Source of the DNA: a virus
Taxonomy: Duplodnaviria > Heunggongvirae > Uroviricota > Caudoviricetes
Virus record (IMG/VR): IMGVR_UViG_3300028454_001165
Coordinates: 1 to 64,000 of that record
Strand: one strand, 5' to 3'
Length of the DNA: 64,000 nucleotides
Part shown: in pieces, positions 1,932 to 47,538 of the stretch
Layout: every line of letters starts with the position of its first letter
Position numbering within the stretch: the first letter of the stretch is position 1
Made by a program: the position numbers and the translations under genes
Notes under the pieces: generated by a model
Databases searched by the model: none
What the model saw: only the letters and a program-made list of their open reading frames with translations
Told to the model about the DNA's origin: nothing

Positions 1932-2128
1932 TTGCCTTCTTCTCTCTTTTTTTACGCGAAATTTGCATCGGCTATAATGAAAGGGCACTAGTGTATGTAT
2001 GGTAGCACGCCTCCTAAAACGGACGGGGGAAGGATGGGTTCAAATCCCATTGCCTTTTTCTTTTATTTTCTGCACGCGGGTGATGATAATCCGTGCTAAA
2101 ATGGCATCTGAAAGAAAGGGGGATTCAT

Positions 2129-2350
2129 GTGATTTGGTTCTATGTCTGTCTGACAATTGCAGTCAGCGGCTTTCTGGGATTTGCATTCGGCAAATTTGTT
2201 CAACGAGAGCGAGCAAAAGTCTATGGCACGTTGAACGTCGTCCATTGGTCTGGCAGAGGAGATGATCTCTTACTCCAGTTAGATCATGACACTTCTGACT
2301 TGAGCGACGGCCAATATATCACGCTATATGTAAAATGCACGCGGAGATAA
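2129..2350 (+). CDS. hypothetical small membrane protein (GTG start, 74 aa)
   Basis: AAGGGGG 6 nt upstream of GTG 2129. N-terminal hydrophobic helix. The 2093 GTG alternative lacks an RBS. Confidence 0.3.
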   Translation: MIWFYVCLTIAVSGFLGFAFGKFVQRERAKVYGTLNVVHWSGRGDDLLLQLDHDTSDLSDGQYITLYVKCTRR

Positions 2351-2392
2351 CATCTGATATAATGGACTCAATATACTGAAAGGGGTATACAG

Positions 2393-2890
2393 ATGGAGAA
2401 CGAGAAAAGCAATGCTGAACTGCTTGAGGAGGAACTGAAACGCCAGTTGGAAGAACTGAAGACGCTTCCCGTTGGATCGGAAGGATCGAAGGCCATCCTC
2501 GACGACATGCTGGACCTTTCCAAGGTCGCATCCGAATGGAAGAAACTGGAAATCGAAGCGGACAAAGCGAAAGCGGAGCTCGAACTTGCAGTCAGGAAGC
2601 ACGAAGACGAACGGGCACTTGAAGCGCAGAAAGCTGAGCGCGAACAGGCCAAGTTCGAAGCGGAGCGGAAGGCAAAAGAGAATGAGCATCGTGAAGCTTC
2701 AAAGCAGAGGTGGACCGCGGCAATTCTGCAGGGTGTAGGCTTTGGCGTCAGCATCGGTCTTGCGGCAATGAGCAGACGAGAGACACGCGAACTTCTGGGA
2801 ACCGTCCTGAAGTTTGAAGAATCTGGCAATTACGTCAGTTCCGCGGCAGGAAAGAGCTTACTTGGAAGCATCTTTAGAATCAGAAAATGA
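2393..2890 (+). CDS. hypothetical coiled-coil protein with C-terminal TM segment (165 aa)
   Basis: RBS GAAAGGGG. Glu/Lys-rich heptad-like region, then hydrophobic stretch ILQGVGFGVSIGLAAM. Confidence 0.55.
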   Translation: MENEKSNAELLEEELKRQLEELKTLPVGSEGSKAILDDMLDLSKVASEWKKLEIEADKAKAELELAVRKHEDERALEAQKAEREQAKFEAERKAKENEHREASKQRWTAAILQGVGFGVSIGLAAMSRRETRELLGTVLKFEESGNYVSSAAGKSLLGSIFRIRK

Positions 2891-3027
2891 GATCCCATGG
2901 GAGGGAGGTACACGCTGAGCAAGCGTTGCCTCTTTCTTTTTTTTTCTTCGCGTAGATTACACCCCTCTTAATGGAGAAAAGAGCTCTTTGCTCCGAAGCT
3001 ATTTTATAGTAAAGGAGAACAGAGATC

Positions 3028-3282
3028 ATGAGTGTTTTCAACGAAAAGAGGTGGCTCGCCTTTGAGACGGGCAAATTCATCTGCGCGAAATGCGGTGAAG
3101 AGATGATCTTCGAGGATGAGTGGGAAGAAAACCTCCTGTGCCCGAAATGCGGTTACAGAGTTACCGCTGAAAAATACGGGTTTGACAGTGAAGAAGAATA
3201 CGAGGCAGTCTATCCCATAATCGAGATCACCGATTTACCCGAACAGAAGGACTCTGAAAAAGAGTCACCGAAAACTGAATGA
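3028..3282 (+). CDS. zinc-ribbon protein (84 aa)
   Basis: RBS AAAGGAGAA. Two CxxC pairs (CAKCG...CPKCG). Acidic C-terminus. Confidence 0.6.
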   Translation: MSVFNEKRWLAFETGKFICAKCGEEMIFEDEWEENLLCPKCGYRVTAEKYGFDSEEEYEAVYPIIEITDLPEQKDSEKESPKTE

Positions 3283-4480: not shown

Positions 4481-4762
4481 TTAGCAAGCTGATGTACATG
4501 GCACTTTCGTGGCCTTAATTATTGATGGAACACCAAAGCATACCATAAGTGTTACGCAAATTATTGCACATTTCCAGATTTCACCAGATTTGGCATGATC
4601 TGCTGCTTCCAGTTTCTGATCATCCGGAACATCGGCATAAATTTCACTGGATTTGCATAGTGCTGTCGCCGCGTCTGCCAATTTTGACAGTCCCTCGCCT
4701 ATGGATGGCTTGTTCAGTCTGGTCTGATTTTCAGGTTCTTGATTCGAATTATTCTTCGGCAT
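4481..4762 (-). CDS. hypothetical protein with C-terminal TM helix (93 aa), only - strand gene in the left arm
   Basis: GAGGTGA RBS 7 nt upstream of ATG on - strand. Convergent with the 4364 gene, sharing a bidirectional hairpin. Confidence 0.55.
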   Translation of the reverse strand: MPKNNSNQEPENQTRLNKPSIGEGLSKLADAATALCKSSEIYADVPDDQKLEAADHAKSGEIWKCAIICVTLMVCFGVPSIIKATKVPCTSAC

Positions 4763-4921
4763 GAAATCACCTCGTATGATATTTGGATTTGCCTATCGGC
4801 GGAGGCATTATACCAAAACGGAGAAGAATTGTCAAGAGGATTCTAAAGGATTTGACGCGAAATCTACATCTATAATAATGGAAAACTCGCCAACAAAGAG
4901 TATCTATGAAAGGAAAAGGAT

Positions 4922-27189: not shown

Positions 27190-27565
27190 GCATTATATTT
27201 TCAAGAACGGATCGCAGGAGGCACAGGACATGATCTGTGCGCTTGTAGGGATCGACGACATCCGGTATCTCAGCGACGGGCATCATACCTTTGACGGTCT
27301 TTATCATCAGCGAGCGGTGCTTTTTGGAGCTCTTGTAAAAGCGAACAAAGATCTGGCATGGAAATCAAGACGACATGACGACGGGGAGTATTGCTTCGGA
27401 GATCCGAAGTGGTTTATCGTCGGCATCAATACGCCGAAAGGACAGTACACGTATCATTATCACTATGATGACTACTGGGATCTGTTTGACTGCAAGGAAC
27501 TTGACAGAGCTCCCAAATGGGACGGACATGATGAAAAGGATGTAACGAGACTGCTGAGTCTTTGA
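27179..27565 (+). CDS. hypothetical protein (128 aa)
   Basis: Start overlaps the upstream gene's stop. Confidence 0.45.
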   Translation: MANKHYIFKNGSQEAQDMICALVGIDDIRYLSDGHHTFDGLYHQRAVLFGALVKANKDLAWKSRRHDDGEYCFGDPKWFIVGINTPKGQYTYHYHYDDYWDLFDCKELDRAPKWDGHDEKDVTRLLSL

Positions 27566-34098: not shown

Positions 34099-34131
34099 CA
34101 TTTGCAAGTAATCGTGGGGGGGGGTATCACG

Positions 34132-34386
34132 ATGAAAGTCATACTTGCCGGGGCGGCCGTTCTGCTGGCGTACCTGATCGGGATCATTGTCGGGCGGAAA
34201 AGCATTGCCGACGAATCGGAAGAATACGAACGGAGGATCCATGATCTGAAGGAAGAGATGCGGACATTGGACTGCGGTTATGCCGGGAGGGTCAAGGATC
34301 TGATCATGGAGCGGGAATTCCTTCGCGGGCAGATCGCGGAAATGAAACAGGTTCAGGATACGATTAGCGGCAAAAGAACGGATTGA
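34132..34386 (+). CDS. TM + coiled-coil small protein (84 aa); G9 tract serves as its RBS
   Basis: GGGGGGGGG at 34116-34124, 7 nt upstream of ATG. TM helix ILAGAAVLLAYLIGIIV. Confidence 0.5.
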   Translation: MKVILAGAAVLLAYLIGIIVGRKSIADESEEYERRIHDLKEEMRTLDCGYAGRVKDLIMEREFLRGQIAEMKQVQDTISGKRTD

Positions 34387-34410
34387 TATTTTTACAAAAG
34401 GAGAAAAGGC

Positions 34411-34740
34411 ATGAGAGTCTGGATACACAGGATCCGAGAGGATGAAACATACAAATTCATCCCGGACGCAGAGTTTACGAGAAGATACAGGGACGGCATT
34501 TACAGTAGGGAAGACCGGCTGAAACTTGAATGGACGCCGATCAAAGTCGAGATCCCGGAAAGCCTGAGCCCATCGGTCAATGCGGATGGAATCATGACGA
34601 TTGCTTGTCCCGAATCCGACGAACTGCGGGTAAATCTTGCGGAGGTTCTCACGGCGGACGGGGAAGGAAAACCCGTTCTTCTGTTCCTGCAGTCGGAGGA
34701 CAGGGCGATGGAATTTGCGCTGGAAGAAATCTTTTATTGA
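34411..34740 (+). CDS. hypothetical protein (109 aa)
   Basis: AAAAGGAGAAAAGGC RBS. Stop inside TTGATATTT. Confidence 0.5.
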   Translation: MRVWIHRIREDETYKFIPDAEFTRRYRDGIYSREDRLKLEWTPIKVEIPESLSPSVNADGIMTIACPESDELRVNLAEVLTADGEGKPVLLFLQSEDRAMEFALEEIFY

Positions 34741-34761
34741 TATTTGAAAGGGGTTTTGAAA

Positions 34762-35379
34762 ATGGGAAAGTTTCTTGCCGGGTGTGCGGTCGGGTTCGCC
34801 GGGGCTTCGGTTCTTGCGGCTGCGGCGGCGAAAAAGATATTTGAAGACGAGACTTTCGGCTATGCTCTTCGGTCGAGCATTGTCATGAAGGCGACCGGAT
34901 TCATCCGCGATCTTGTTTACGGGCGAGAGAGACTGAGAAAACGGCAATACTGTGAATACGTCGACTATTCGCGGGACGGGCGCGGGCACGGCTCATCCTG
35001 GCCGGGCGTGGAAACCGTCAAGGAGAAAGAAACCGATAAGGAAAAGCCGCATTCGGTGTTTCAGAAGTTTGATATTCTCGGACTGGAGGCGCTGTATTCC
35101 GAGGAGCGGGGAGAGCTCGAGGCTGAAGCGCAGGGGCTTGGATATACCGAAGGCGAGGACTTTTATATTTACTGGCTGCGCGGAGGAAAGGGCGACGATC
35201 CGGGCGAGATCGCTTCGGTCGAGCAGGCCTTTGTCGCGGTGAACTATGTTGCGACGGTCATGACGAAGGAGCCGATCTCATTCCCGGAAGGACGGAACTG
35301 GATGGATCTCTCGGAGAACGACTGGGGATTCCTGTCCGACGAGGGTGACATCACGGTATTTGAGTTTTTGGGGGATTGA
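34762..35379 (+). CDS. hypothetical protein with N-terminal hydrophobic segment (205 aa)
   Basis: GAAAGGGG RBS after a TTGATATTT junction. Stop inside the next TTGATATTT. Confidence 0.5.
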   Translation: MGKFLAGCAVGFAGASVLAAAAAKKIFEDETFGYALRSSIVMKATGFIRDLVYGRERLRKRQYCEYVDYSRDGRGHGSSWPGVETVKEKETDKEKPHSVFQKFDILGLEALYSEERGELEAEAQGLGYTEGEDFYIYWLRGGKGDDPGEIASVEQAFVAVNYVATVMTKEPISFPEGRNWMDLSENDWGFLSDEGDITVFEFLGD

Positions 35380-35436
35380 TATTTTCGCCGCGGTGTGGTA
35401 TAATGGATCTGCGATCCGAAAGAAAGGAGAAACGGT

Positions 35437-35703
35437 ATGCCTGAGTTGAGCAGGTTCGGCGGCATGGTGATCTATATGCTGTTCTATGACGTAAAGAAGC
35501 ACCATAAGCCGCATGTGCACGTGTATTACGGAGACTATGAGGCAACGGTCGCGATCGACGGGGAGCTTCTTGCCGGGGCTCTGCCGAGAAAGCAGCTGAA
35601 GATCGTCACGGGCTGGCTGGCGTTTTACGAAGAAGAGGCCTACAAGGCTTGGAATCTGGCGGTGCGGGGTGAGCACTTCGAGCAGATCCCGCCGATGAAC
35701 TGA
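35437..35703 (+). CDS. DUF4160-family protein (88 aa)
   Basis: HHKPHVHVYYGDYEA matches the H-x-PHFHV signature I recall for DUF4160. Partner DUF2442-like gene immediately downstream. Confidence 0.5.
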   Translation: MPELSRFGGMVIYMLFYDVKKHHKPHVHVYYGDYEATVAIDGELLAGALPRKQLKIVTGWLAFYEEEAYKAWNLAVRGEHFEQIPPMN

Positions 35704-35712
35704 GGTGAAAGC

Positions 35713-36009
35713 ATGTATATCGTGAATGATATTTGTTATGCCGGAGAGCTTGTCGAGGACATCCGGGTGACGGAGGTCAAACCTCTGCGGGGACGGATGA
35801 TGCTCGTGACGTTCTCCACGGGGGAGAAGCGTTTGTTCGACACGACGCTTCTGAAGGGCTCTGCGTTCGAGCCGCTGAAGGATGAAAAGATCTTCATGGC
35901 TCCGGTCCTGTTCCACGGGGTCATCACATGGAACAACGGGGAAATCGACATCGCGCCGGAGACGGTTTATGTCGAGAGCTACCCATATGAGGAGGCCGCC
36001 GTCGTTTGA
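35713..36009 (+). CDS. DUF2442-family protein (98 aa)
   Basis: Typical DUF2442 size and pattern (IRVTEVKPL....LVTFSTGEKRLFD). Canonical two-gene pairing with DUF4160. Confidence 0.5.
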   Translation: MYIVNDICYAGELVEDIRVTEVKPLRGRMMLVTFSTGEKRLFDTTLLKGSAFEPLKDEKIFMAPVLFHGVITWNNGEIDIAPETVYVESYPYEEAAVV

Positions 36010-36225
36010 TATTAACGGCAAAGGGTGACGGGAAAAGAGAAACGGGGTCGTGCGATTTGCATGGCCTCTTTCTTTTTGCCGCGCAGATTGATATTTATAG
36101 ACTTGTTTAGGAGATCGGGGGGGGGACTTGAGGTTGATTTGGCGAACTTTTGCGGGCGGTTTTCTATCTTAAGATAGTTCTCGAGGGATGCGAGATTGAT
36201 ATTTTGTACTTTTTAGGAGACGATT

Positions 36226-36480
36226 TTACTGGCCAATTTTATAGTTGTAAAAGTGGGCTTTGCCCACCCAAAATGCAGAAAATAATTAGTTTAACAAACT
36301 AACTGTCCGGAAAAAGTGGGCAACTGGCCACTTTTTTTTCAAAGTTGGCCAGCTGAAAACCGTTGTCTTTATTGGGTTTGAGGCTTCTCTGGCCAATTGG
36401 CCAACTTTTTTTTAATATTTCCGCGAAACGAAAAAATTCGTTTTTATATAATATAGAGAAAAAACTGGGCAAGTTGGCCA
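36226..36480 (+). repeat. iteron cluster: six TGGCCA copies (one as the 14-bp palindrome TGGCCAATTGGCCA) plus GTGGGCtttGCCCAC and AAGTGG...CCACTT palindromes and an AT-rich core
   Basis: TGGCCA at 36230, 36325, 36346, 36390, 36398, 36475. AT-rich 36404-36460 containing AACGAAaaaaTTCGTT. No ORF with RBS. Confidence 0.6.
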
Positions 36481-36594
36481 GCGTGGATTTTGAGGCTGTT
36501 TTCACAAGAAAAAGCGCGGCGGAGAGTCCGGTCGCGTTGATTGATATTTTCGGAGATTGAGGGGGGGGGGATGAACGCTTTCGTCGGACTGCGA

Positions 36595-36619
36595 CGCGAA
36601 AAAAACATGGGTCTTAATG
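36595..36619 (+). promoter_or_regulatory. CGCG-N16-TAATGG motif (copy identical to 37224-37248)
   Basis: gcgaCGCGaaaaaaacatgggtctTAATGGagaacatccaaaattactga, 46 nt identical to the downstream cassette. Confidence 0.45.
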
Positions 36620-36663
36620 GAGAACATCCAAAATTACTGATTTTTCAAAAGGAGTTTAGAACT

Positions 36664-36912
36664 ATGGCAAAGATCAATGCGAAGGAAATCGGAATGGCGT
36701 GCCTGACCGGTGCGAAGAAGATCTGGAAGCCTTTAACGGGCGTTATGATCGCTGCGGGAGCGGTGATCGGAACGTACCTGCTGGGGAAAAAAGAACTCGA
36801 CGCGGAGGAGGCGGCGGAAAACGAGAACCTGCTCGCGGACGGAGCTGAAGAAGAAACGACTGACGAAGAAAGCAACGAGGAAGAATCCGAAGAGGAGGAC
36901 GACGCTGAATAA
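36664..36912 (+). CDS. small TM protein with poly-acidic tail (82 aa)
   Basis: AAAAGGAGTTTAGAACT RBS. TM GVMIAAGAVIGTYLL. Tail ...EEESEEEDDAE. The last codons and terminator are duplicated at 37435-37475. Confidence 0.5.
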   Translation: MAKINAKEIGMACLTGAKKIWKPLTGVMIAAGAVIGTYLLGKKELDAEEAAENENLLADGAEEETTDEESNEEESEEEDDAE

Positions 36913-36937
36913 GCGTCCCCTCTTTCTTTTTTTTTTT
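36895..36937 (+). terminator. terminator hairpin GACGC-tgaataa-GCGTC + T-run (duplicated at 37443-37479)
   Basis: Stop codon TAA sits in the loop. T10 run follows. Confidence 0.5.
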
Positions 36938-36959
36938 GTGTGAGGATTGATATTTTTTG

Positions 36960-37175
36960 TTACTTTGAACGATGTTCTCTTTCGGACTTTTTTCGGAGGA
37001 GTTTTACGGCCTTCGCGACGGTAAGCCCGATCGATACCGCTATTCCGGCGGTGATGATTTTTTCGTTTGTGTTCAATTGGTTATAGGCGGCGTTCATGCT
37101 TCCGTATCCCCGCTTCATTTCTTTGGTAATCTGGGCGGCGTTCAGCTTTTTGCTCACGTCGGTCTCTCCGGGCAT
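36960..37175 (-). CDS. putative - strand membrane protein (71 aa)
   Basis: TATAAT -10-like element 13 nt upstream on the - strand, but no SD. TM helix IITAGIAVSIGLTVAKAV. Uncertain. Confidence 0.25.
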   Translation of the reverse strand: MPGETDVSKKLNAAQITKEMKRGYGSMNAAYNQLNTNEKIITAGIAVSIGLTVAKAVKLLRKKSEREHRSK

Positions 37176-37235
37176 TGATATTTACATGATTATATCATAG
37201 ACACGGAATAAATGCAAGGACAGCGCGAAAAAAAC

Positions 37236-37460
37236 ATGGGTCTTAATGGAGAACATCCAAAATTACTGAATGAAGGAGAAATAGAGATAAAAAGCTTGAA
37301 AAGTATCGTGCTTGGGAGTATCGGAGGCTTGGTGGGCGGGTTTACCGTTCTGCTATGGCTCTGGAGCAGACCGGACACGCTGACGGATGAGCTGAATGAA
37401 ATTCGCTCTGACATCAAAGCTTTGGAGGAATCCAAAAAGACGGAGGACGACGCTGAATAA
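37236..37460 (+). CDS. small TM protein with acidic C-terminus (about 75 aa; start ambiguous)
   Basis: Shares 5' flank and 3' end (EDDAE* plus terminator) with the 36664 cassette. TM helix IVLGSIGGLVGGFTVLLWLW. No clean RBS-ATG; the start may be the ATG inside the promoter-like motif or a downstream TTG/GTG. Confidence 0.3.
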   Translation: MGLNGEHPKLLNEGEIEIKSLKSIVLGSIGGLVGGFTVLLWLWSRPDTLTDELNEIRSDIKALEESKKTEDDAE

Positions 37461-37645
37461 GCGTCCCCTCTTTCTTTTTGCGGCGGGTGGGATTGATATT
37501 TCCGGGAATCGGGGGGGGGACGCGCAGATCGCATGGACTGTAATGAGAGAAGAACGAATATGCGCGTTCTGTTTCTCTTGCGTTTGATCCGCAAAAAAAA
37601 AGAGCCCGCGTTTCGGCACAGGCCCTTTTGTCCGCTTGCGCGGTA

Positions 37646-37750
37646 TCACTTCCGGTTTTCCACGGAAGCTCTGGCATCCGCCAGCTTTTCCGCAGCGATC
37701 TGCAGAGCAGCGATGATGCCTTCGAGATTTACTCTCCGGCGAGCTTTCAT
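37646..37750 (-). CDS. 34-aa - strand peptide with strong RBS
   Basis: AAGGAGGG 7 nt upstream of ATG. Sequence MKARRRVNLEGIIAALQIAAEKLADARASVENRK. Confidence 0.3.
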   Translation of the reverse strand: MKARRRVNLEGIIAALQIAAEKLADARASVENRK

Positions 37751-38049
37751 TTTTCAGCCCTCCTTTACGGTAGAATCTCTTCTCCTTTTCTACGAGTATT
37801 ATACCAAATTTCGGCGGGTTTGTCAAGCGGATTGCGGATCGGACGCAAAAAAGAACCTATGATCGGACACAGGTTCTTTCCGGGTTTCCTTCGGATGCGG
37901 GTGGGCGAACAATCAACACTGATTGATATTCGTACCGCTGGTTTCTCCTTTCAGTTTCGGCTGGCAACGGTCTGCGCGCAAGATCACCGATCATCCCAAA
38001 CTGAACGTCCGGCTCCGCATCCAATGGAAGCCCTACGGCTCTTAACCGC

Positions 38050-38136
38050 TTACCTTCGGCTGATGTAATTCAGCACGGCAACTACAGTCTGAATGAGACT
38101 GAGCACCAACATGATGATACCAATCAATTCAGTCAT
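38050..38136 (-). CDS. 28-aa hydrophobic peptide, type I toxin-like
   Basis: Sequence MTELIGIIMLVLSLIQTVVAVLNYISRR. Canonical promoter TTGCAA(38190-38195)-N17-TATAAT(38167-38172) on the - strand. Paralog of the 38660 peptide. Confidence 0.45.
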   Translation of the reverse strand: MTELIGIIMLVLSLIQTVVAVLNYISRR

Positions 38137-38659
38137 GTACACCGCTTTCCGTGTGCGCGCGAGAGCATTATAGCACATTCTCGGCGTCTTTGCAACCGGC
38201 AGGTTGAACAAAGATCGTTCGGGATCTGTGCGAAAAATAAGGAGAGGCGCATAGCTAACATACCCTCTTTATTTTTGCCGAGGATCCGGGGAAGGTGGTT
38301 TTCGAAATGCCCCCCCCCTGTTTTATTGATATTTTCAGACGGTCGGACGCGGCGGAAACATTTTCTGTTATGAAGAGAGGAGACAGAACGGGGTTTTGGT
38401 TCCCGTTTGATTTTGTCTTTCTTTTCGTCATTGATATTTTCGATGACGAAGAAAAAGGAGATACGCGCCAGACGCTGCCAAACAGCTTTTCCGTATAAAT
38501 GAATCACTTCATGTTCGGAACGGTCGGCGGGGTCTGCCGTACTGACGAAGAGCGGTTTCTTTCGCCGCGATTTGCTGCGCGGGATGAATGAGGAGGAAGT
38601 AGTTCATCCCCTACTTGAAATTGCAATGCGTCTTTACGGCGGATCCCCCTTTTTCAGCC

Positions 38660-38767
38660 TTACCGCTTACGGATTTGCATCACGCAAGCGACAACGGTGG
38701 CTAATGCCGACACGACTTCGCATACGGTCTGAACAAAGTCAAACACAAGCTGGATGTCAAACGTCAT
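38660..38767 (-). CDS. 35-aa hydrophobic peptide, type I toxin-like
   Basis: Sequence MTFDIQLVFDFVQTVCEVVSALATVVACVMQIRKR. GAAAGAAAGGGG RBS. Extended -10 TGcTAAAAT upstream on the - strand. Same MT...QTV...I(R/S)(K/R)R pattern as the 38050 peptide. Confidence 0.45.
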   Translation of the reverse strand: MTFDIQLVFDFVQTVCEVVSALATVVACVMQIRKR

Positions 38768-38860
38768 GGCGCGCCCCTTTCTTTCTACATGCGGGCGCAC
38801 GGATATTTTAGCACAGGTCGTCATCACTCGCGTGCACAATTTTCAGAAAGGAGAAACAAA

Positions 38861-39199
38861 ATGGCAAAAAAGAAAGAGAACCGGTTTCAGCGGGAAGTGA
38901 TTCAGGAGCTGAAAAGCCGGTTTCCGGGATGCGTCGTGATGAAGAACGCCACCGGGTTCCACGACGGGTTCCCGGACATTGTGATGTATCTCGGGCGCGT
39001 CTGGGCGATGCTCGAATGCAAGCGGGAGAAGGCGGCGAAGAAACGGCCGAACCAGCTGTACTGGGTGGACCGGATGGACGGGATGTCCTTCGCGCGGTTC
39101 ATTTACCCGGAGAACAGGGCCAAGGTCATGGCGGAGCTTGAGGCGTTCGTCGTGGCTTCTGTCGGCATTGATATTTCCGGCAGGAGGGACGCCGCATGA
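38861..39199 (+). CDS. VRR-NUC domain nuclease (112 aa)
   Basis: GFPDIVMY...AMLECK...QLYW matches the VRR-NUC PD-(D/E)xK signature (GFPDL...EVK...Q..W). AAAGGAGAAACAAA RBS. Confidence 0.55.
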   Translation: MAKKKENRFQREVIQELKSRFPGCVVMKNATGFHDGFPDIVMYLGRVWAMLECKREKAAKKRPNQLYWVDRMDGMSFARFIYPENRAKVMAELEAFVVASVGIDISGRRDAA

Positions 39200-39765
39200 G
39201 CTTCCAGTTCAACCGGCACGCGGAGATCGAGGGCAAGCACGCTTTTCTCTCGGCGTCGAAGTATCATTGGATCCGGTACGATGAAGCGAAGATGGCCGAC
39301 GTATTCCGCAATTTCTTCGCGGCGGAGCAGGGAACGCGGATGCACGATTTCGCGTCCCATTGCATTCGGATGGGACAGAAGCTTCCGCGGACGAAGCAGA
39401 CGCTCAACATGTTCGTCAACGACGCGGTGGAGTTCGGGATGTCCTCGGAGGTGGTGCTGTATTACAGCCGCAACTGTTTCGGGACGACGGACGCGATCGG
39501 TTTCCGGAATGGGGTGCTCCGCATTCACGACTACAAGAGCGGTGTGATCCCGGCGCATTTCGAGCAGCTCTTCGTCTACGCGGCTCTGTTTTGTCTGGAA
39601 TACGACGTTGCGCCGGAGGATATTCAGATCGAGCTGCGGATCTATCAGTCGGGTGAGATTCAGAAATGCAGGCCGGAGCCGGAGGTGATCCGGGAGGTCA
39701 TGCGGAAAGCGGTGGATTTTGACATGCTGATCGAATCCATCAAAGAGGAAGAGCGGGCCAATTGA
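39196..39765 (+). CDS. putative PD-(D/E)xK-family nuclease (189 aa)
   Basis: ATGA coupling to the VRR-NUC gene. TDAIGF...LRIHDYKSG resembles a D...(D/E)xK core. Low certainty. Confidence 0.35.
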   Translation: MSFQFNRHAEIEGKHAFLSASKYHWIRYDEAKMADVFRNFFAAEQGTRMHDFASHCIRMGQKLPRTKQTLNMFVNDAVEFGMSSEVVLYYSRNCFGTTDAIGFRNGVLRIHDYKSGVIPAHFEQLFVYAALFCLEYDVAPEDIQIELRIYQSGEIQKCRPEPEVIREVMRKAVDFDMLIESIKEEERAN

Positions 39766-39848
39766 TATTTGAAATAGGGGGTGGGATCGCCGGATGTGAC
39801 CCCCTCTTCTTTTTCATTGATATTTGCAAAGAAAGGCAGATTACAGCC

Positions 39849-42668
39849 ATGGATACGAAAAACGACGCGATCTACATCGATGAGGAAACCGGCGAGGTCT
39901 TGGATGACATGGATATTCTCGAGCACTACGGGATGCCCCGGCGGTCCGGGAGGTACCCGTGGGGTTCCGGGGACAATCCTTACCAGCGGACGGGGGATTT
40001 CATTTCCCGCGTGAACAAGATGAAGGCCGACGGCATGTCGGAGGGGGAGATCGCCCGCGAGCTTGAGATTGTGAACTACCGCGGCGAACCGTCCCCATCC
40101 CGGCTCAGAACGCAGCTCTCCGTCGCCAAGAATTACCGCCGCTCGCTTCTTGTAGAGCAGGCGAAGGACATGAAGGCGAAGGGTCTCGGAGCTACGGAGA
40201 TCGGCGAGAAGATGGGGCTGAACGAGTCTACGGTCCGCTCCCTTCTCAATACGAAGGCCGAAGCCCGGATGCTCGCGGCGTCCAACACGGCGAAATACCT
40301 CAAAGAGGAGATCGACAAGAACGGCATGATCGACGTTGGTTCCAGCGTGGAGCGAAAGCTCGGCGTGACGCGGACGACGCTCGACAACGCGCTGATGATC
40401 CTCGAAATGGAGGGATATCCGACTTACGGAGGACGGGTCCCTCAGGTGACGAACAAGGGGCAGATGACGACGCTCAAGGTGGTCTGCCCGCCGGGCGCTG
40501 AGAAAAAAGATATTTACGATTATGCGAAGATCCACCAGCTCGGAGACAGGATCTCGTCCGACGGAGGCGAGACCTTCGATCCGGTCTGGGTCTATCCGAA
40601 GTCGCTGGATTCGAAGCGGGTGCAGATCCGTTACGCGGAAGAAGGCGGCAAGGACAAGGACGGTGTGGTTGAGATCCGGCCGGGTGTGGAAGACGTTTCC
40701 CTCGGCGGCTCCTCTTACGCGCAGGTCAGGGTTCTGGTGGACGGGACGCATTACATCAAGGGCATGGCGGTTTACGGGGATCCGGCCGACTTCCCGGAGG
40801 GGGTCGACATGATCTTCAACACGAACAAGCACGTCGGGACGCCGATGCTGTCGGATGATCCGAACGCGAAGTGCGTGCTCAAGCCCATCGATAAGGCGAA
40901 TCCGACGAACCCCTTCGGGTCGCTGATCAAGGACGGCATCGTCGATCCTGACGACCCTTCGAAGAAGGAGGGCGGACAGCGGTACTACTACGACGAGAAC
41001 GGCGAGAAGCAGCTCTCCGTCATCAACAAGCGGGCCGACGCCGGGGATTGGAACGAATGGAGCCACGATCTCCCCTCGCAGTTCCTTTCGAAGCAGAACA
41101 ACAAGCTCGTGAAGCAGCAGCTCGATCTTGCGAAGATCGACAAGCAGAGCGAATACGAGGAGATCTGCGCATTGACGAATCCGACGGTGAAGAAGCATCT
41201 CCTTCTGAATTTCGCGAACGACTGTGATTCGGCGGCGGTGCATCTCAAGGCGGCCGCCCTTCCGAGGCAGCGGTATCAGGTGATCCTTCCCCTGACGACG
41301 CTCGGGGACGACGAGGTCTATGCTCCGAACTACAAGCCTGGGGAGAAGGTCGCGCTGATCCGGTATCCGCACGGGGGGACGTTCGAGATCCCGATCCTGA
41401 AGGTGAACAATAAGAATGCGGAGGGGAGGCGGGTGATCGGGCCCAATCCGCCGGATGCGGTCGGCATCAACGCGAAGGTCGCGGAGCGGCTCTCCGGGGC
41501 GGATTTCGACGGGGACACGGTCATGGTGATCCCGCTCTCCGGCAAGGCGAATATCACCTCTACGCCGACGCTTCCGGGGCTCGAAGGCTTCGATCCGAAG
41601 GAGCAGTACGGCGGGAAACCGGCAGGGACCTTCAAGCAGATGACGAAGCCCGGCACGCAGATGGAGATGGGGAAGGTTTCAAATCTCATCACCGACATGA
41701 CGATCGGGGGGGCCGGTCCGGAAGAGCTGGCAAAGGCGGTTCGCCACTCCATGGTGGTCATCGACGCATACAAGCACAAGCTGGATTACAAGCAGTCCGA
41801 AATCGACAACGATATCCCCGCCCTCAAACGCAGATGGCAGGGGCATACGACGGAGGACGGGCGGTATTCCACGGGGGCCGCCACGATCATTTCGCAGGCG
41901 AAGGGGCAGGCGAGCGTTCCGAAATACCGGGGGGTCCAGAAGATCGATCCCGAGACGGGCAAGCTCTACTGGGACAGCCGGAAGACGCCCGAGACCTATG
42001 TGGACAAGAACGGTAAGACGCAGACGCGAATGGTCCGCACCACGAAAATGGCGGCCACGGACGACGCGATGAAGCTGGTTTCGGAAGGCAGGACGCAGGT
42101 CGAGCTGCTGTACGCGGATTACGCGAACACGATGAAGTCTCTGGCGAACGACGCGCGAAAAGAATACGTTTCCGCAGGAAGGATCGAGCGCAGTTCCGAA
42201 GCCGCGCAGAAATATGCGGCCGAAGTGGCAAATCTTGAAGCGCAGCTGAACGTCGCAAAGCTCAACGAGCCGCGCGAACGTCAGGCGCAGCTGAACGCCA
42301 ACGCGAACATCAAGCTCTGGCTGGAGAAGAATCCCGACGCGACGAACGCCGAGATCAAGAAGCAGTCTCAGCGGGAACTCTCGAACGAGCGCGCAAAGCT
42401 CGGCGCGAAGAGAAGTCCGGTGAAGATCAGCCCCGAACAATGGGAGGCGATTCAGGCCGGAGCGGTTTCGGAAAACGTGCTGACGAACATCCTCAAGTAC
42501 ACGGACATTGATGTCGTCCGCGGCTACGCGACGCCTCGCGCTTCCAAAGAGCTGAGCGCGGTGAAGCAGGCGAGGATCCACGCGCTGCAGAACTCCGGCT
42601 ACACGAATCAGGACATCGCAGACGCGCTCGGCGTTTCGGTTTCGACTGTGCTGAACTATCTTGACTGA
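39849..42668 (+). CDS. large multi-HTH protein (940 aa)
   Basis: AAAGAAAGGCAG RBS. Three HTH-like segments (GMSEGEIARELEI; GLGATEIGEKMGLNESTVRSLLN; C-terminal GYTNQDIADALGVSVSTVLNYLD). N-terminal HYGMPRRSGRYPWGSGDNPYQ resembles the N-termini of the 45556 and 50539 products. Confidence 0.6.
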   Translation: MDTKNDAIYIDEETGEVLDDMDILEHYGMPRRSGRYPWGSGDNPYQRTGDFISRVNKMKADGMSEGEIARELEIVNYRGEPSPSRLRTQLSVAKNYRRSLLVEQAKDMKAKGLGATEIGEKMGLNESTVRSLLNTKAEARMLAASNTAKYLKEEIDKNGMIDVGSSVERKLGVTRTTLDNALMILEMEGYPTYGGRVPQVTNKGQMTTLKVVCPPGAEKKDIYDYAKIHQLGDRISSDGGETFDPVWVYPKSLDSKRVQIRYAEEGGKDKDGVVEIRPGVEDVSLGGSSYAQVRVLVDGTHYIKGMAVYGDPADFPEGVDMIFNTNKHVGTPMLSDDPNAKCVLKPIDKANPTNPFGSLIKDGIVDPDDPSKKEGGQRYYYDENGEKQLSVINKRADAGDWNEWSHDLPSQFLSKQNNKLVKQQLDLAKIDKQSEYEEICALTNPTVKKHLLLNFANDCDSAAVHLKAAALPRQRYQVILPLTTLGDDEVYAPNYKPGEKVALIRYPHGGTFEIPILKVNNKNAEGRRVIGPNPPDAVGINAKVAERLSGADFDGDTVMVIPLSGKANITSTPTLPGLEGFDPKEQYGGKPAGTFKQMTKPGTQMEMGKVSNLITDMTIGGAGPEELAKAVRHSMVVIDAYKHKLDYKQSEIDNDIPALKRRWQGHTTEDGRYSTGAATIISQAKGQASVPKYRGVQKIDPETGKLYWDSRKTPETYVDKNGKTQTRMVRTTKMAATDDAMKLVSEGRTQVELLYADYANTMKSLANDARKEYVSAGRIERSSEAAQKYAAEVANLEAQLNVAKLNEPRERQAQLNANANIKLWLEKNPDATNAEIKKQSQRELSNERAKLGAKRSPVKISPEQWEAIQAGAVSENVLTNILKYTDIDVVRGYATPRASKELSAVKQARIHALQNSGYTNQDIADALGVSVSTVLNYLD

Positions 42669-46671: not shown

Positions 46672-47538
46672 TCAATGCACGCATTTCTGGCATGGGGTTT
46701 TGCCTCTGCGCAAAGCTTCTGATAAGCTTACCGGGTATGAGTTGACACCGCCGCAATCCGGATCGATGTGGTATCTGACTCCGGATGGTGTTATATAGAC
46801 GGTTTCTTCGTCCGGTTCTTCTTCAAGTGTATATATAGTCAGATCTTCCTGCCCTGTGGAGAGTGAGCGGTAATTGGACATATTACCGACAGATTCTCCA
46901 ATACTTTCCATGGCGTAGTAATAGTCATCATAAGTAAAAACTTGCTTGAAGATCAGCCAATCAGCGAGCGGAGCAAGCGGATATTCCTTTTGCGGAGCTT
47001 GAATTGTAGCAAGGGAGACCGTTACAATATCGGCTCGCAGGAAGTTATCAAGATCAACGTTCCAGCGGATCAGGTTTAGTTGCCGGGCAAGATCGTAGGG
47101 GTTGCTCCATGTGAAATCTCCACGGGAGTCATCATAGCCGAGGGCACGAAGGGCAAACGTTAGATACATGGCGGAGGATACAGTGCCGGTACCGAACTCG
47201 GTATCCGAGATGCCGTTGGCAAGGCCCTCGTTATATGCGAATCCTATATAGTCGTCTGCCCAGTTCGGAACGTCAGTGAATGGATGCCAGCGATGGACAG
47301 CCAGAGCTTCTTCTTCATAACCGATCAGACGGATCAGCATGACGATTGCTTCTACTCTGGTTGCGGGTCTCTCCAAATCAAAGTTGTTATCGGAGACTCC
47401 TTTGAATAAACCGAGTGATTTCAAAGCCTGTGCCTGTGATTCTTCCACACCTATGTATCTTGCATTTACTGCTGTCGGCAGGAAACAAAAGAGCATCGCG
47501 ATCGCAAGCAAGAGGGAGATAATTTGTGAAGATTTCAT
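46672..47538 (-). CDS. - strand moron: secreted SLH-domain protein with C-terminal Cys4 (288 aa)
   Basis: Signal peptide (LLLAIAMLFCFLPTAVNA). Two SLH-like repeats (FKGVSDNNFDLERPATRVEAIVMLIRLIGY; GFAYNEGLANGISDTEFGTGT..RALGY). C-terminal CGG...CQKC. Confidence 0.55.
   Translation of the reverse strand: MKSSQIISLLLAIAMLFCFLPTAVNARYIGVEESQAQALKSLGLFKGVSDNNFDLERPATRVEAIVMLIRLIGYEEEALAVHRWHPFTDVPNWADDYIGFAYNEGLANGISDTEFGTGTVSSAMYLTFALRALGYDDSRGDFTWSNPYDLARQLNLIRWNVDLDNFLRADIVTVSLATIQAPQKEYPLAPLADWLIFKQVFTYDDYYYAMESIGESVGNMSNYRSLSTGQEDLTIYTLEEEPDEETVYITPSGVRYHIDPDCGGVNSYPVSLSEALRRGKTPCQKCVH

Follow-up and report, generated by a model that had tools for sequence, protein, structure and literature searches.

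In hok/sok, through the tac-fbi fold-back, and in aapA1/IsoA1 of Helicobacter, the full-length toxin mRNA is closed by pairing between its 5' start region and a distal 3' segment, and the primary transcript would thereby be translationally inert. Dual-function RNAs such as RNAIII/hld (delta-toxin), psm-mec, and SR1/SR1P are structured, encode small amphipathic peptides, and base-pair with target mRNAs, and the morons of lambdoid and HK97-like phages consist of extra DNA between genes that are adjacent in relatives, with a promoter and a terminator of their own, an independent orientation, and expression from the prophage. The toxin and antitoxin RNAs of type I modules in Gram-positive bacteria are convergent and overlap one another, and several such modules are found in SPbeta, a prophage that encodes YonO (PMC4147584). 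The overlap amounts to ~100 nucleotides (nt) or more at the 3' ends, and the antitoxin RNA has its own promoter, active under the same conditions as that of the toxin. Here we describe two small hydrophobic peptides of 28 and 35 amino acids (aa), pepA and pepB, encoded on the minus strand of a 64,000-nt stretch of DNA (hereafter the window; positions 1–64,000 of IMG/VR record IMGVR_UViG_3300028454_001165, Caudoviricetes). A preliminary description, made from the same DNA, had taken them for type I toxin-antitoxin-like loci. We found that they belong to a series of three consecutive units, B, A, and C (Table 1), that the start site of pepB is predicted to be closed by a long-distance helix, and that a type I-like mechanism is the single most likely reading of the locus, although we hold it tentatively.

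The helix resembles hok/sok and aapA1/IsoA1 in closing the start region by means of a distal segment. Those systems, however, are Gram-negative, with defined processing steps and antisense RNAs, and their distal arm is at the 3' end, whereas that of pepB is internal, ~220 nt before the terminator. Unit B is also like RNAIII/hld, being a structured RNA of ~570 nt with a 5'-proximal open reading frame (ORF), an amphipathic peptide with a basic tail, and a start predicted to pair with downstream RNA. It differs in that pepB had no match among the phenol-soluble modulins (Staphylococcus aureus peptides) of Pfam and in that the host is a Clostridia bacterium known from a metagenome-assembled genome (MAG), not Staphylococcus. 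The units share the traits of morons, presumably including expression from the prophage, but differ from the usual ones in that they are very small (195–570 nt, with products of 28–35 aa), that three lie in tandem, and that one is inside a 5' leader. Like the type I modules of Gram-positive prophages, the locus has a small hydrophobic peptide with a charged C-terminus behind its own predicted promoter, a long 3' untranslated region (UTR) that convergent transcription would overlap, and, for pepB, a ribosome-binding site (RBS) predicted to be held in a stem (PMC4147584, PMC2887945). As with the SPbeta modules, its location is in a prophage, beside a putative YonO-type polymerase (PMC4147584). 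It is unlike them in that no antitoxin gene with a host-type promoter was found, that there is no sequence similarity, and that the antisense partner would be a phage plus-strand transcript.

Three minus-strand units and a start site predicted to be paired

The three units lie in tandem on the minus strand, each with a predicted sigma-70-type promoter and an intrinsic terminator; promoters and terminators are predictions at the level of the consensus. Both ORFs were present as previously claimed (pepA, MTELIGIIMLVLSLIQTVVAVLNYISRR; pepB, MTFDIQLVFDFVQTVCEVVSALATVVACVMQIRKR; each followed by a stop codon) and are 524 nt apart, but the third unit and the terminators that close every unit had been overlooked. 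The claim of a host-type promoter for each peptide was borne out by the two-hexamer promoter of unit A, while unit B offers an extended −10 element, from which transcription would start near 38798, and, further upstream, a 9/12 alternative. The promoters of units A and C are alike over 38 nt (alignment score 32 versus 17.7 ± 2.5). Because its T-run is also present on the plus strand, the terminator of unit B is predicted to be bidirectional. All three transcripts folded better than shuffled sequences (z of −4.7, −3.9, and −4.35 for B, A, and C, respectively), and in unit B the ORF accounts for only 108 of the ~570 nt.

The product of unit C is basic, arginine-rich, helical, and non-hydrophobic. 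It had no family match, and its ORF was annotated by gene callers in 7 metagenome contigs. As had been stated, the stretch 37480–38850 is without a credible plus-strand gene. A plus-strand ORF that one gene caller annotated there (38295..38498) was rejected, because indels of 1 nt at 38394 and 38457 disrupt its frame in L080, the one informative variant, which is 97% identical to the window over 34116–41470.

An RBS had been attributed to each peptide. That of pepB is strong (AGAAAGGGG, 6 nt upstream of the ATG); that of pepA is considered below. When all ATG ORFs of 18–70 codons on the entire minus strand were scanned for both a hydrophobic core (Kyte-Doolittle value above 2.2 in a 15-residue window) and a Shine-Dalgarno (SD)-like sequence, 2 out of 350 qualified, namely pepA and pepB. 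They are thus not chance picks. Both have 12 hydrophobic residues out of 15 and, as already noticed, a basic C-terminus: pepA has one uncharged segment of 23 residues and ends in NYISRR, while pepB, which is amphipathic/hydrophobic, has an uncharged run of 15 residues, three acidic residues, and the tail MQIRKR. Their proposed paralogy is possible but not proven. The similarity of the peptides exceeded that of composition-preserving shuffles (BLOSUM62 local score of 34 versus 18.7 ± 3.7, with 4 out of 2000 shuffles reaching 34), but the DNAs of units A and B are not similar, their promoters are of different types, and pepB lies on a separate insert.

pepB is annotated as a gene in one public assembly (P0001) and pepA by no gene caller. 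Genes for peptides of 28–35 aa are missed or inconsistently annotated in this way, and can be recognized by their transcription signals together with their presence or absence among strains. Longer ORFs of 53 and 59 aa with TTG starts were discarded, as they start upstream of the promoters. Leader peptides for attenuation were dismissed as well, no gene being present downstream within the same unit, and so was a holin or lysis function, for which the strand and the promoter type are wrong.

Partition-function folding indicated that the SD sequence and AUG of pepB (38785–38765) pair with a segment ~300 nt downstream (38452–38475), the GC core of the helix in the window having a pairing probability near 1.0. 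In L080, the duplex comprises 21 contiguous pairs and reaches −33.8 kcal/mol (z −4.9), a value attained by 0 out of 500 shuffles. Four differences between L080 and the window fall in the arms of the helix, and three of them improve the pairing: an A>G change at 38779, on the side of the start region, converts an A.C opposition to a G-C pair, an A>C change at 38462 mends a G.A mismatch, and the deletion of a C at 38457 eliminates a bulge. Owing to its G.U pairs, the L080 helix is stronger on the minus-strand RNA (−33.8 kcal/mol) than on the plus-strand RNA (−19.1 kcal/mol). In these folding models, the helix is the best single argument that the start site of pepB is real and that its use would be restrained.

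The comparison with L080 also bore on the remainder of the units. No change was found in the 108 nt of the pepB ORF, versus 18 differences, including three 1-nt indels, in 391 nt of the 3' region of unit B. The unit C ORF (pepC) has one synonymous change, and pepA one synonymous and two conservative changes (A20T, R28K), its frame being intact; all 7 indel events in 37480–38860 fall outside the three ORFs. The promoter hexamers are all intact, the −10 element of unit B and the promoter of unit A being unchanged and the two changes in the promoter of unit C affecting only its spacer. Outside its ORF, unit A (promoter, both UTRs, and terminator) is identical over 255 nt, as compared with 3 differences over the 87 nt of the pepA ORF. 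The difference-free run of 208 nt from the terminator of unit A through its 3' UTR ranks second in length within 4 kb, and the third-longest run contains the pepB ORF. These small counts are consistent with both coding and RNA constraint, without proving either. Conservation in related elements, which had been named as a check, was seen to the extent that the three ORFs are intact in L080, but no homologue was found outside this phage lineage.

Table 1. Positions of the units, their signals, and other features of the window
Feature	Position	Strand	Details
Unit B promoter	38805..38813	−	extended −10 TGcTAAAAT, no usable −35
Unit B alternative promoter	38867..38839	−	TTGCCA-17-GAAAAT, 9/12
pepB SD region	38774..38783	−	AAGAAAGGGG; 5' arm of the long-distance helix, which also covers the AUG
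pepB ORF	38660..38767	−	unit B; 35 aa + stop
Unit B 3' part		−	~430 nt, structured
Distal anti-SD arm	38452..38475	−	internal, ~220 nt before the terminator
Unit B intrinsic terminator	38231..38268	−	10-bp stem, then CCUUAUUUUU
Unit A promoter	38167..38195	−	TTGCAA-17-TATAAT, upstream TG, 10/12
pepA ORF	38050..38136	−	unit A; 28 aa + stop
Unit A 3' UTR	37882..38049	−	~170 nt, structured; 9/10 plus-strand motif copy at 37922–37931
Unit A intrinsic terminator	37846..37881	−	10–14-bp stem + U6
Unit C promoter	37798..37826	−	TTGACA-17-TATAAT with TG, 12/12
Unit C ORF	37646..37750	−	34 aa, MKARRRVNLEGIIAALQIAAEKLADARASVENRK; perfect SD AAAGGAGG
Unit C terminator	37598..37629	−	13-bp stem + U9, bidirectional; no separate 3' part
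pepB insert	38442..38844	.	~403 nt; unit B promoter, pepB, and 215 nt of 3' sequence
Plus-strand motif	38430..38439	+	ATTGATATTT; in relatives directly upstream of the nuclease-gene RBS
Fourth unit of similar kind	ORF 36960..37157; promoter 37217..37189	−	TTGCAT-17-TATAAT with TG; GTG start after GGAGAG
93-aa protein gene	4481..4762; promoter 4835..4807	−	12/12 sigma-70 promoter with TG; C-terminal membrane segment
SLH-domain protein gene	46672..47538	−	envelope or membrane protein

The variable slot and the plus-strand motif

Relatives were fetched through the polymerase or the neighboring nucleases and compared by blastn and tblastn (27 IMG/VR loci, 42 metagenome loci, 3 genome loci, and 9 further contigs). 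Except for a 34-nt leader element, 37480–38860 was not conserved in them, and none had analogous minus-strand hydrophobic ORFs upstream of the polymerase. In L001 and L039, the neighboring genes of which are ~70–75% identical, the slot is without a minus-strand unit and has only a plus-strand gene for a small membrane protein. The slot of L094 carries a plus-strand gene for a membrane protein of 62 aa, and that of L038, the closest relative for which this slot is sequenced, additionally a different minus-strand gene (2090..2992), preceded by a promoter (3071..3042, TTGACA-18-TATACT with TG) and encoding a protein of 300 aa with a signal peptide, which had no PHROG match.

The insert that contains pepB is bounded by the direct repeat ATTTTC (38436–38441 and 38839–38844). 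It is present in the window and in L080 and absent from L096 (~94% identical) and from L094 and L092 (75–77%). In the last three, the plus-strand motif is only 8–12 nt before the RBS of the nuclease gene, while in the window the insert parts the motif (38430) from this RBS (38861). The DNA is thus an addition that separates genes or signals found side by side in relatives, and it has its own predicted promoter and terminator. By the usual definition, and judging from the predicted signals, the units are morons, that is, extra, self-contained genes with host-type promoters in a hypervariable prophage slot.

As the insert lies between the motif and the RBS, the RNA of the nuclease/nuclease/polymerase operon, if it starts at the motif or upstream of it, would be fully antisense to pepB. 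The antisense overlap that had been proposed stands in so far as the operon leader would have to cross pepB; the part concerning promoters fared less well, as described below. At the same site, relatives have the motif as CAT(T/G)GATATTTT (L096, L094, and L092). In the window, TTGATATT was found 37 times on the plus strand and 2 times on the minus strand, and the 10-mer (A)TTGATATT(T) in 24 copies, 23 of them on the plus strand, versus 0.2 expected. Further copies at 37492, 37922 (9/10), and 38325 are inside or just past the 3' parts of minus-strand units, and every one of these units has a copy in or just past its 3' part. The motif was tried as a host extended −10 element and rejected, because transcription would then begin within the SD sequences that follow. 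More probably, it is a signal for the phage (YonO-like) polymerase or a signal acting at the level of RNA or its processing. The promoter of YonO itself was still unknown in the 2017 paper (PMC5467207).

Some further observations concern the motif and its surroundings. Plus-strand copies (e.g., at 27565, 34382, 36087, 36540, 37492, 38325, 38430, 39167, 39761, and 39816) are usually 15–40 nt upstream of plus-strand start codons in the early region at 26–40 kb, and several between 36000 and 38500 have no ORF downstream. Three of the copies without an ORF are followed by runs of G9–10 on the plus strand (36118–36126, 36561–36570, and 37512–37520), and a C9 run (38310–38318), the length of which differs in L080, precedes the copy at 38325. 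Exact copies are rare in relatives, L094 and L092 carrying CATGGATATTTT at the same place. The leader element (38358–38425, plus strand) consists of CTGTTATGAAGAGAGGAGACAGAACGG and a hairpin, and L096, L094, and L092 keep it before their nuclease gene; it was rejected as a conserved ORF, because L080 has indels of 1 nt there and L092 reaches a stop after 11 codons. The insert begins with ATGACGAA, which is complementary to TTCGTCAT immediately before the motif (38424–38450). Where the insert is present, and only there, the motif at 38430 would thus occupy the loop of a perfect 8-bp hairpin.

Toxin module, moron, or functional RNA

Under the type I-like reading, the host RNA polymerase would transcribe the units in the lysogen. 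pepA would form a single-pass helix in the membrane and pepB an amphipathic, membrane-active helix, the closed fold of the mRNA keeping the synthesis of pepB low. Upon induction, plus-strand transcription would form duplexes with the minus-strand transcripts and silence them, while in the lysogen minus-strand transcription would counter leaky read-through on the plus strand. The locus would then work like a type I module of Gram-positive prophages in which a lytic transcript of the phage, and no small RNA made for the purpose, is the antisense partner. To our knowledge, no module of this type I-like kind, lacking a small RNA of its own and tied to the lysis-lysogeny decision, has been described among known type I systems. 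The more specific proposal that a toxin-like gene has been inserted antisense in the 5' leader of the polymerase operon, that the lytic leader itself is the antitoxin, and that the two transcriptions are mutually exclusive appears to us decidedly unlikely. If it were true, peptide production would be coupled to lysogeny, with an RNA-level lock on the polymerase operon.

That the peptides are type I toxins is plausible, more so for pepB, but unproven. In the selection of candidate type I toxins by Fozo et al. 2010 (PMC2887945), peptides were to have <70 aa, at least 10 hydrophobic residues (I, V, L, F, C, M, and A) out of 15, and a C-terminal cluster of polar or charged residues. pepA and pepB both have these features and, in addition, are two similar small ORFs in tandem. 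To this extent, the view of the preliminary description that they are Fst/Ldr/TxpA-like toxins found partial support; neither a family match nor a host-type antisense promoter was found for it.

Several results weigh against the type I-like reading. The toxin and small-protein profiles that had been proposed as a check (Pfam, NCBIfam, PHROGs, and PADLOC) gave no match, and an exhaustive phmmer search with pepB over 1.84 billion representatives returned only pepB itself; for pepA, which is too short, absence elsewhere rests on weaker searches than phmmer. No sigma-70-type promoter for an antitoxin RNA was detected on the plus strand in 37400–38900, the sole candidates for its start there being copies of the phage motif. 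Complementarity between the start regions and the other minus-strand units was not above that of shuffles. In the window itself, the duplex over the pepB start is weak (−24.6 kcal/mol, z −2.0, reached by 20 out of 500 shuffles), and the start region of pepA is not significantly sequestered (z +0.75). The RBS of pepA is a weak one (GAAAG, 8 nt upstream of the ATG), predicted to lie within the loop of a 5' hairpin. Three residues of pepB are acidic and its uncharged run is no longer than 15, so that it is not a canonical transmembrane toxin. Finally, the conserved runs shared with L080 are only marginally unusual, and purifying selection is not established, because there is a single informative variant with four substitutions in ORFs.

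The searches for homologues were negative in other respects as well. In Pfam, pepB had no match, including to HOK_GEF and the phenol-soluble modulins, and pepA had just two matches, to DUF5336 (E 0.018) and to Blr_divisome (E 0.15), neither of which reached its cut-off. By profile, neither belongs to the known type I toxin families (Fst/Ldr, Hok, TisB, Ibs, and others in Pfam and NCBIfam). A search of a protein database with the three peptides concatenated gave no match either; this is a weak negative, because the index evidently misses very short proteins, the identical 35-aa P0001 not being returned. No match was obtained by tblastn of pepA and pepB against 50,697 phage records, where the low-complexity filter may mask such peptides, or with three wobble-degenerate DNA patterns against IMG/VR. 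Rfam gave no match at the gathering thresholds over the whole window, and with E up to 10 on 36000–39200 only terminator-like noise.

The evidence is no less compatible with small membrane peptides encoded by morons than with a formal toxin-antitoxin system. Thus pepA and pepB may be benign products of lysogenic conversion that bind host membrane proteins or block superinfection, with neither toxicity nor an antitoxin, which we consider somewhat unlikely. The same prophage has other minus-strand genes for small membrane or envelope proteins (those for the 65-aa and 93-aa proteins, with predicted promoters, and the one for the SLH-domain protein), the same slot of L038 carries the secreted 300-aa protein with its own promoter, no host-type antisense promoter is present, and the strong, constitutive-looking promoter of pepA is hard to square with a lethal product. 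On the other hand, the start of pepB is predicted to be closed and the changes in L080 strengthen the closure, which suggests that translation must be restrained; structured 3' regions of 170–430 nt would be needless for a plain membrane protein gene; and the size, the C-terminal charge cluster, and the tandem layout match those of toxin candidates. Should the peptides prove benign, the locus would be a case of ordinary moron gain in a hypervariable phage region. The helix on the SD sequence and AUG makes sense only if the start site is used, and this also speaks against the idea, unlikely in our view, that the RNAs are what matters, acting by antisense or interference against read-through into the nuclease/polymerase operon during lysogeny or as dual-function RNAs of the RNAIII/hld kind, with ORFs that are secondary or incidental. 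Such a role would agree with the significant structure of all three transcripts, with the absence of differences outside the ORF of unit A in L080, with the exactly antisense position of unit B relative to the operon leader, and with the motif copy in or just past the 3' part of every unit. An RNA of ~570 nt of which the ORF is a small fraction is also the layout of RNAIII with hld. However, the promoter of unit B fires away from the operon and cannot block initiation at the motif copies nearer to the polymerase gene (39167, 39761, and 39816); pepA and pepB are the sole hydrophobic ORFs preceded by an SD sequence on their strand; the ORFs are intact in L080 while the 3' region of unit B gathers indels; and Rfam had no match.

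It is very improbable that the peptides are chance ORFs in non-functional filler between cassettes, with promoter- and terminator-like sequences that are fortuitous. The order promoter, SD-preceded ORF, and strong terminator recurs three times running on one strand, with promoters that match at 12/12 and 10/12 positions and have the TG, and stems of 10–14 bp are followed by U-runs. The two ORFs that qualified among the 350 are close neighbors, and all signals and ORFs are kept in L080 at 3% divergence, where the start region of pepB forms a 21-bp helix. What can be said for chance is that no homologues were found, that pepA was not annotated by gene callers and pepB only in some assemblies, and that a regional promoter scan gave 5 sites, versus 3.3 expected.

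We know of no type I system that has been characterized in the Oscillospirales of gut and rumen. If the peptides are made and are membrane-active, they would constitute an orphan family, carried by prophages of uncultured members of this group, of small toxins or membrane modulators. The pepB unit would be a compact example of a toxin-like gene with a phage lytic leader for its antisense partner, which would tie a small peptide gene to the control of a YonO-type RNA polymerase operon.

Prophage context and neighboring features

The window is a segment of a bacterial chromosome with an integrated prophage. This follows from the presence of a class II aminoacyl-tRNA synthetase gene of 60% GC at 1–1506, which is followed by ~60 kb of roughly 50% GC, and from the finding of the neighboring 112-aa nuclease in a Ruminococcaceae/Oscillospiraceae MAG from NCBI (longest contig, 543,524 nt). 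The host is a gut Clostridia bacterium (Oscillospiraceae/Ruminococcaceae MAG), and relatives of the polymerase were found in Acutalibacteraceae and Oscillospiraceae MAGs. The prophage genes are almost all on the plus strand, and pepA and pepB are oriented opposite to all lytic genes. We recognized genes for a primase-polymerase, a helicase, the large terminase, the portal, and a head protease/capsid protein; no tRNA genes were found in the window. A protein of 968 aa (39762..42668, plus strand) matches phrog_4291 end to end and is taken, on this similarity, to be a YonO-type single-chain RNA polymerase (the YonO enzyme is described in PMC5467207). It has extra helix-turn-helix-type matches to PHROG DNA-binding families at residues ~130–170 and ~917–967. 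Its gene has two motif copies upstream and is the terminal gene of the contig in many IMG/VR relatives.

A fourth unit of similar kind (Table 1) encodes a 65-aa product with a single membrane segment and a very basic tail. It is flanked by two paralogous plus-strand membrane-protein genes and is missing from L080. These paralogous genes (36541..36912 and 37212..37460) share identical 5' ends of 46 nt and 3' ends of 38 nt including the terminator, and L080 is without 36932–37423, as recombination between the repeats would give. The arrangement is cassette-like and recalls the cassettes bounded by promoters and stem-loops in T4-type phages. Further away, the promoter of the 93-aa protein gene adjoins a divergent plus-strand promoter (TTGACG-16-AATAAT, 4852..4879). 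The 93-aa protein had no match in Pfam or PADLOC, and this region could be another moron or a component of a lysogeny switch.

The non-coding stretch 36220–36500 is better conserved than the adjacent genes, its identity being 81.5% to L094 (over 271 nt) and 76% to L092. With several near-palindromes that include TGGCCA, e.g., TTGGCCAATTGGCCA and TGGCCAACTTGCCCA, it may represent an operator array, an origin, or an RNA. L084, L085, and L086, three contigs that come from different samples and different assemblers, all begin exactly at position 37543 of the window. This shared start is probably a break of the assembly graph at a boundary of the cassette array marked by recombination or polymorphism, or could be the end of an RNA, if any of these assemblies is a metatranscriptome.

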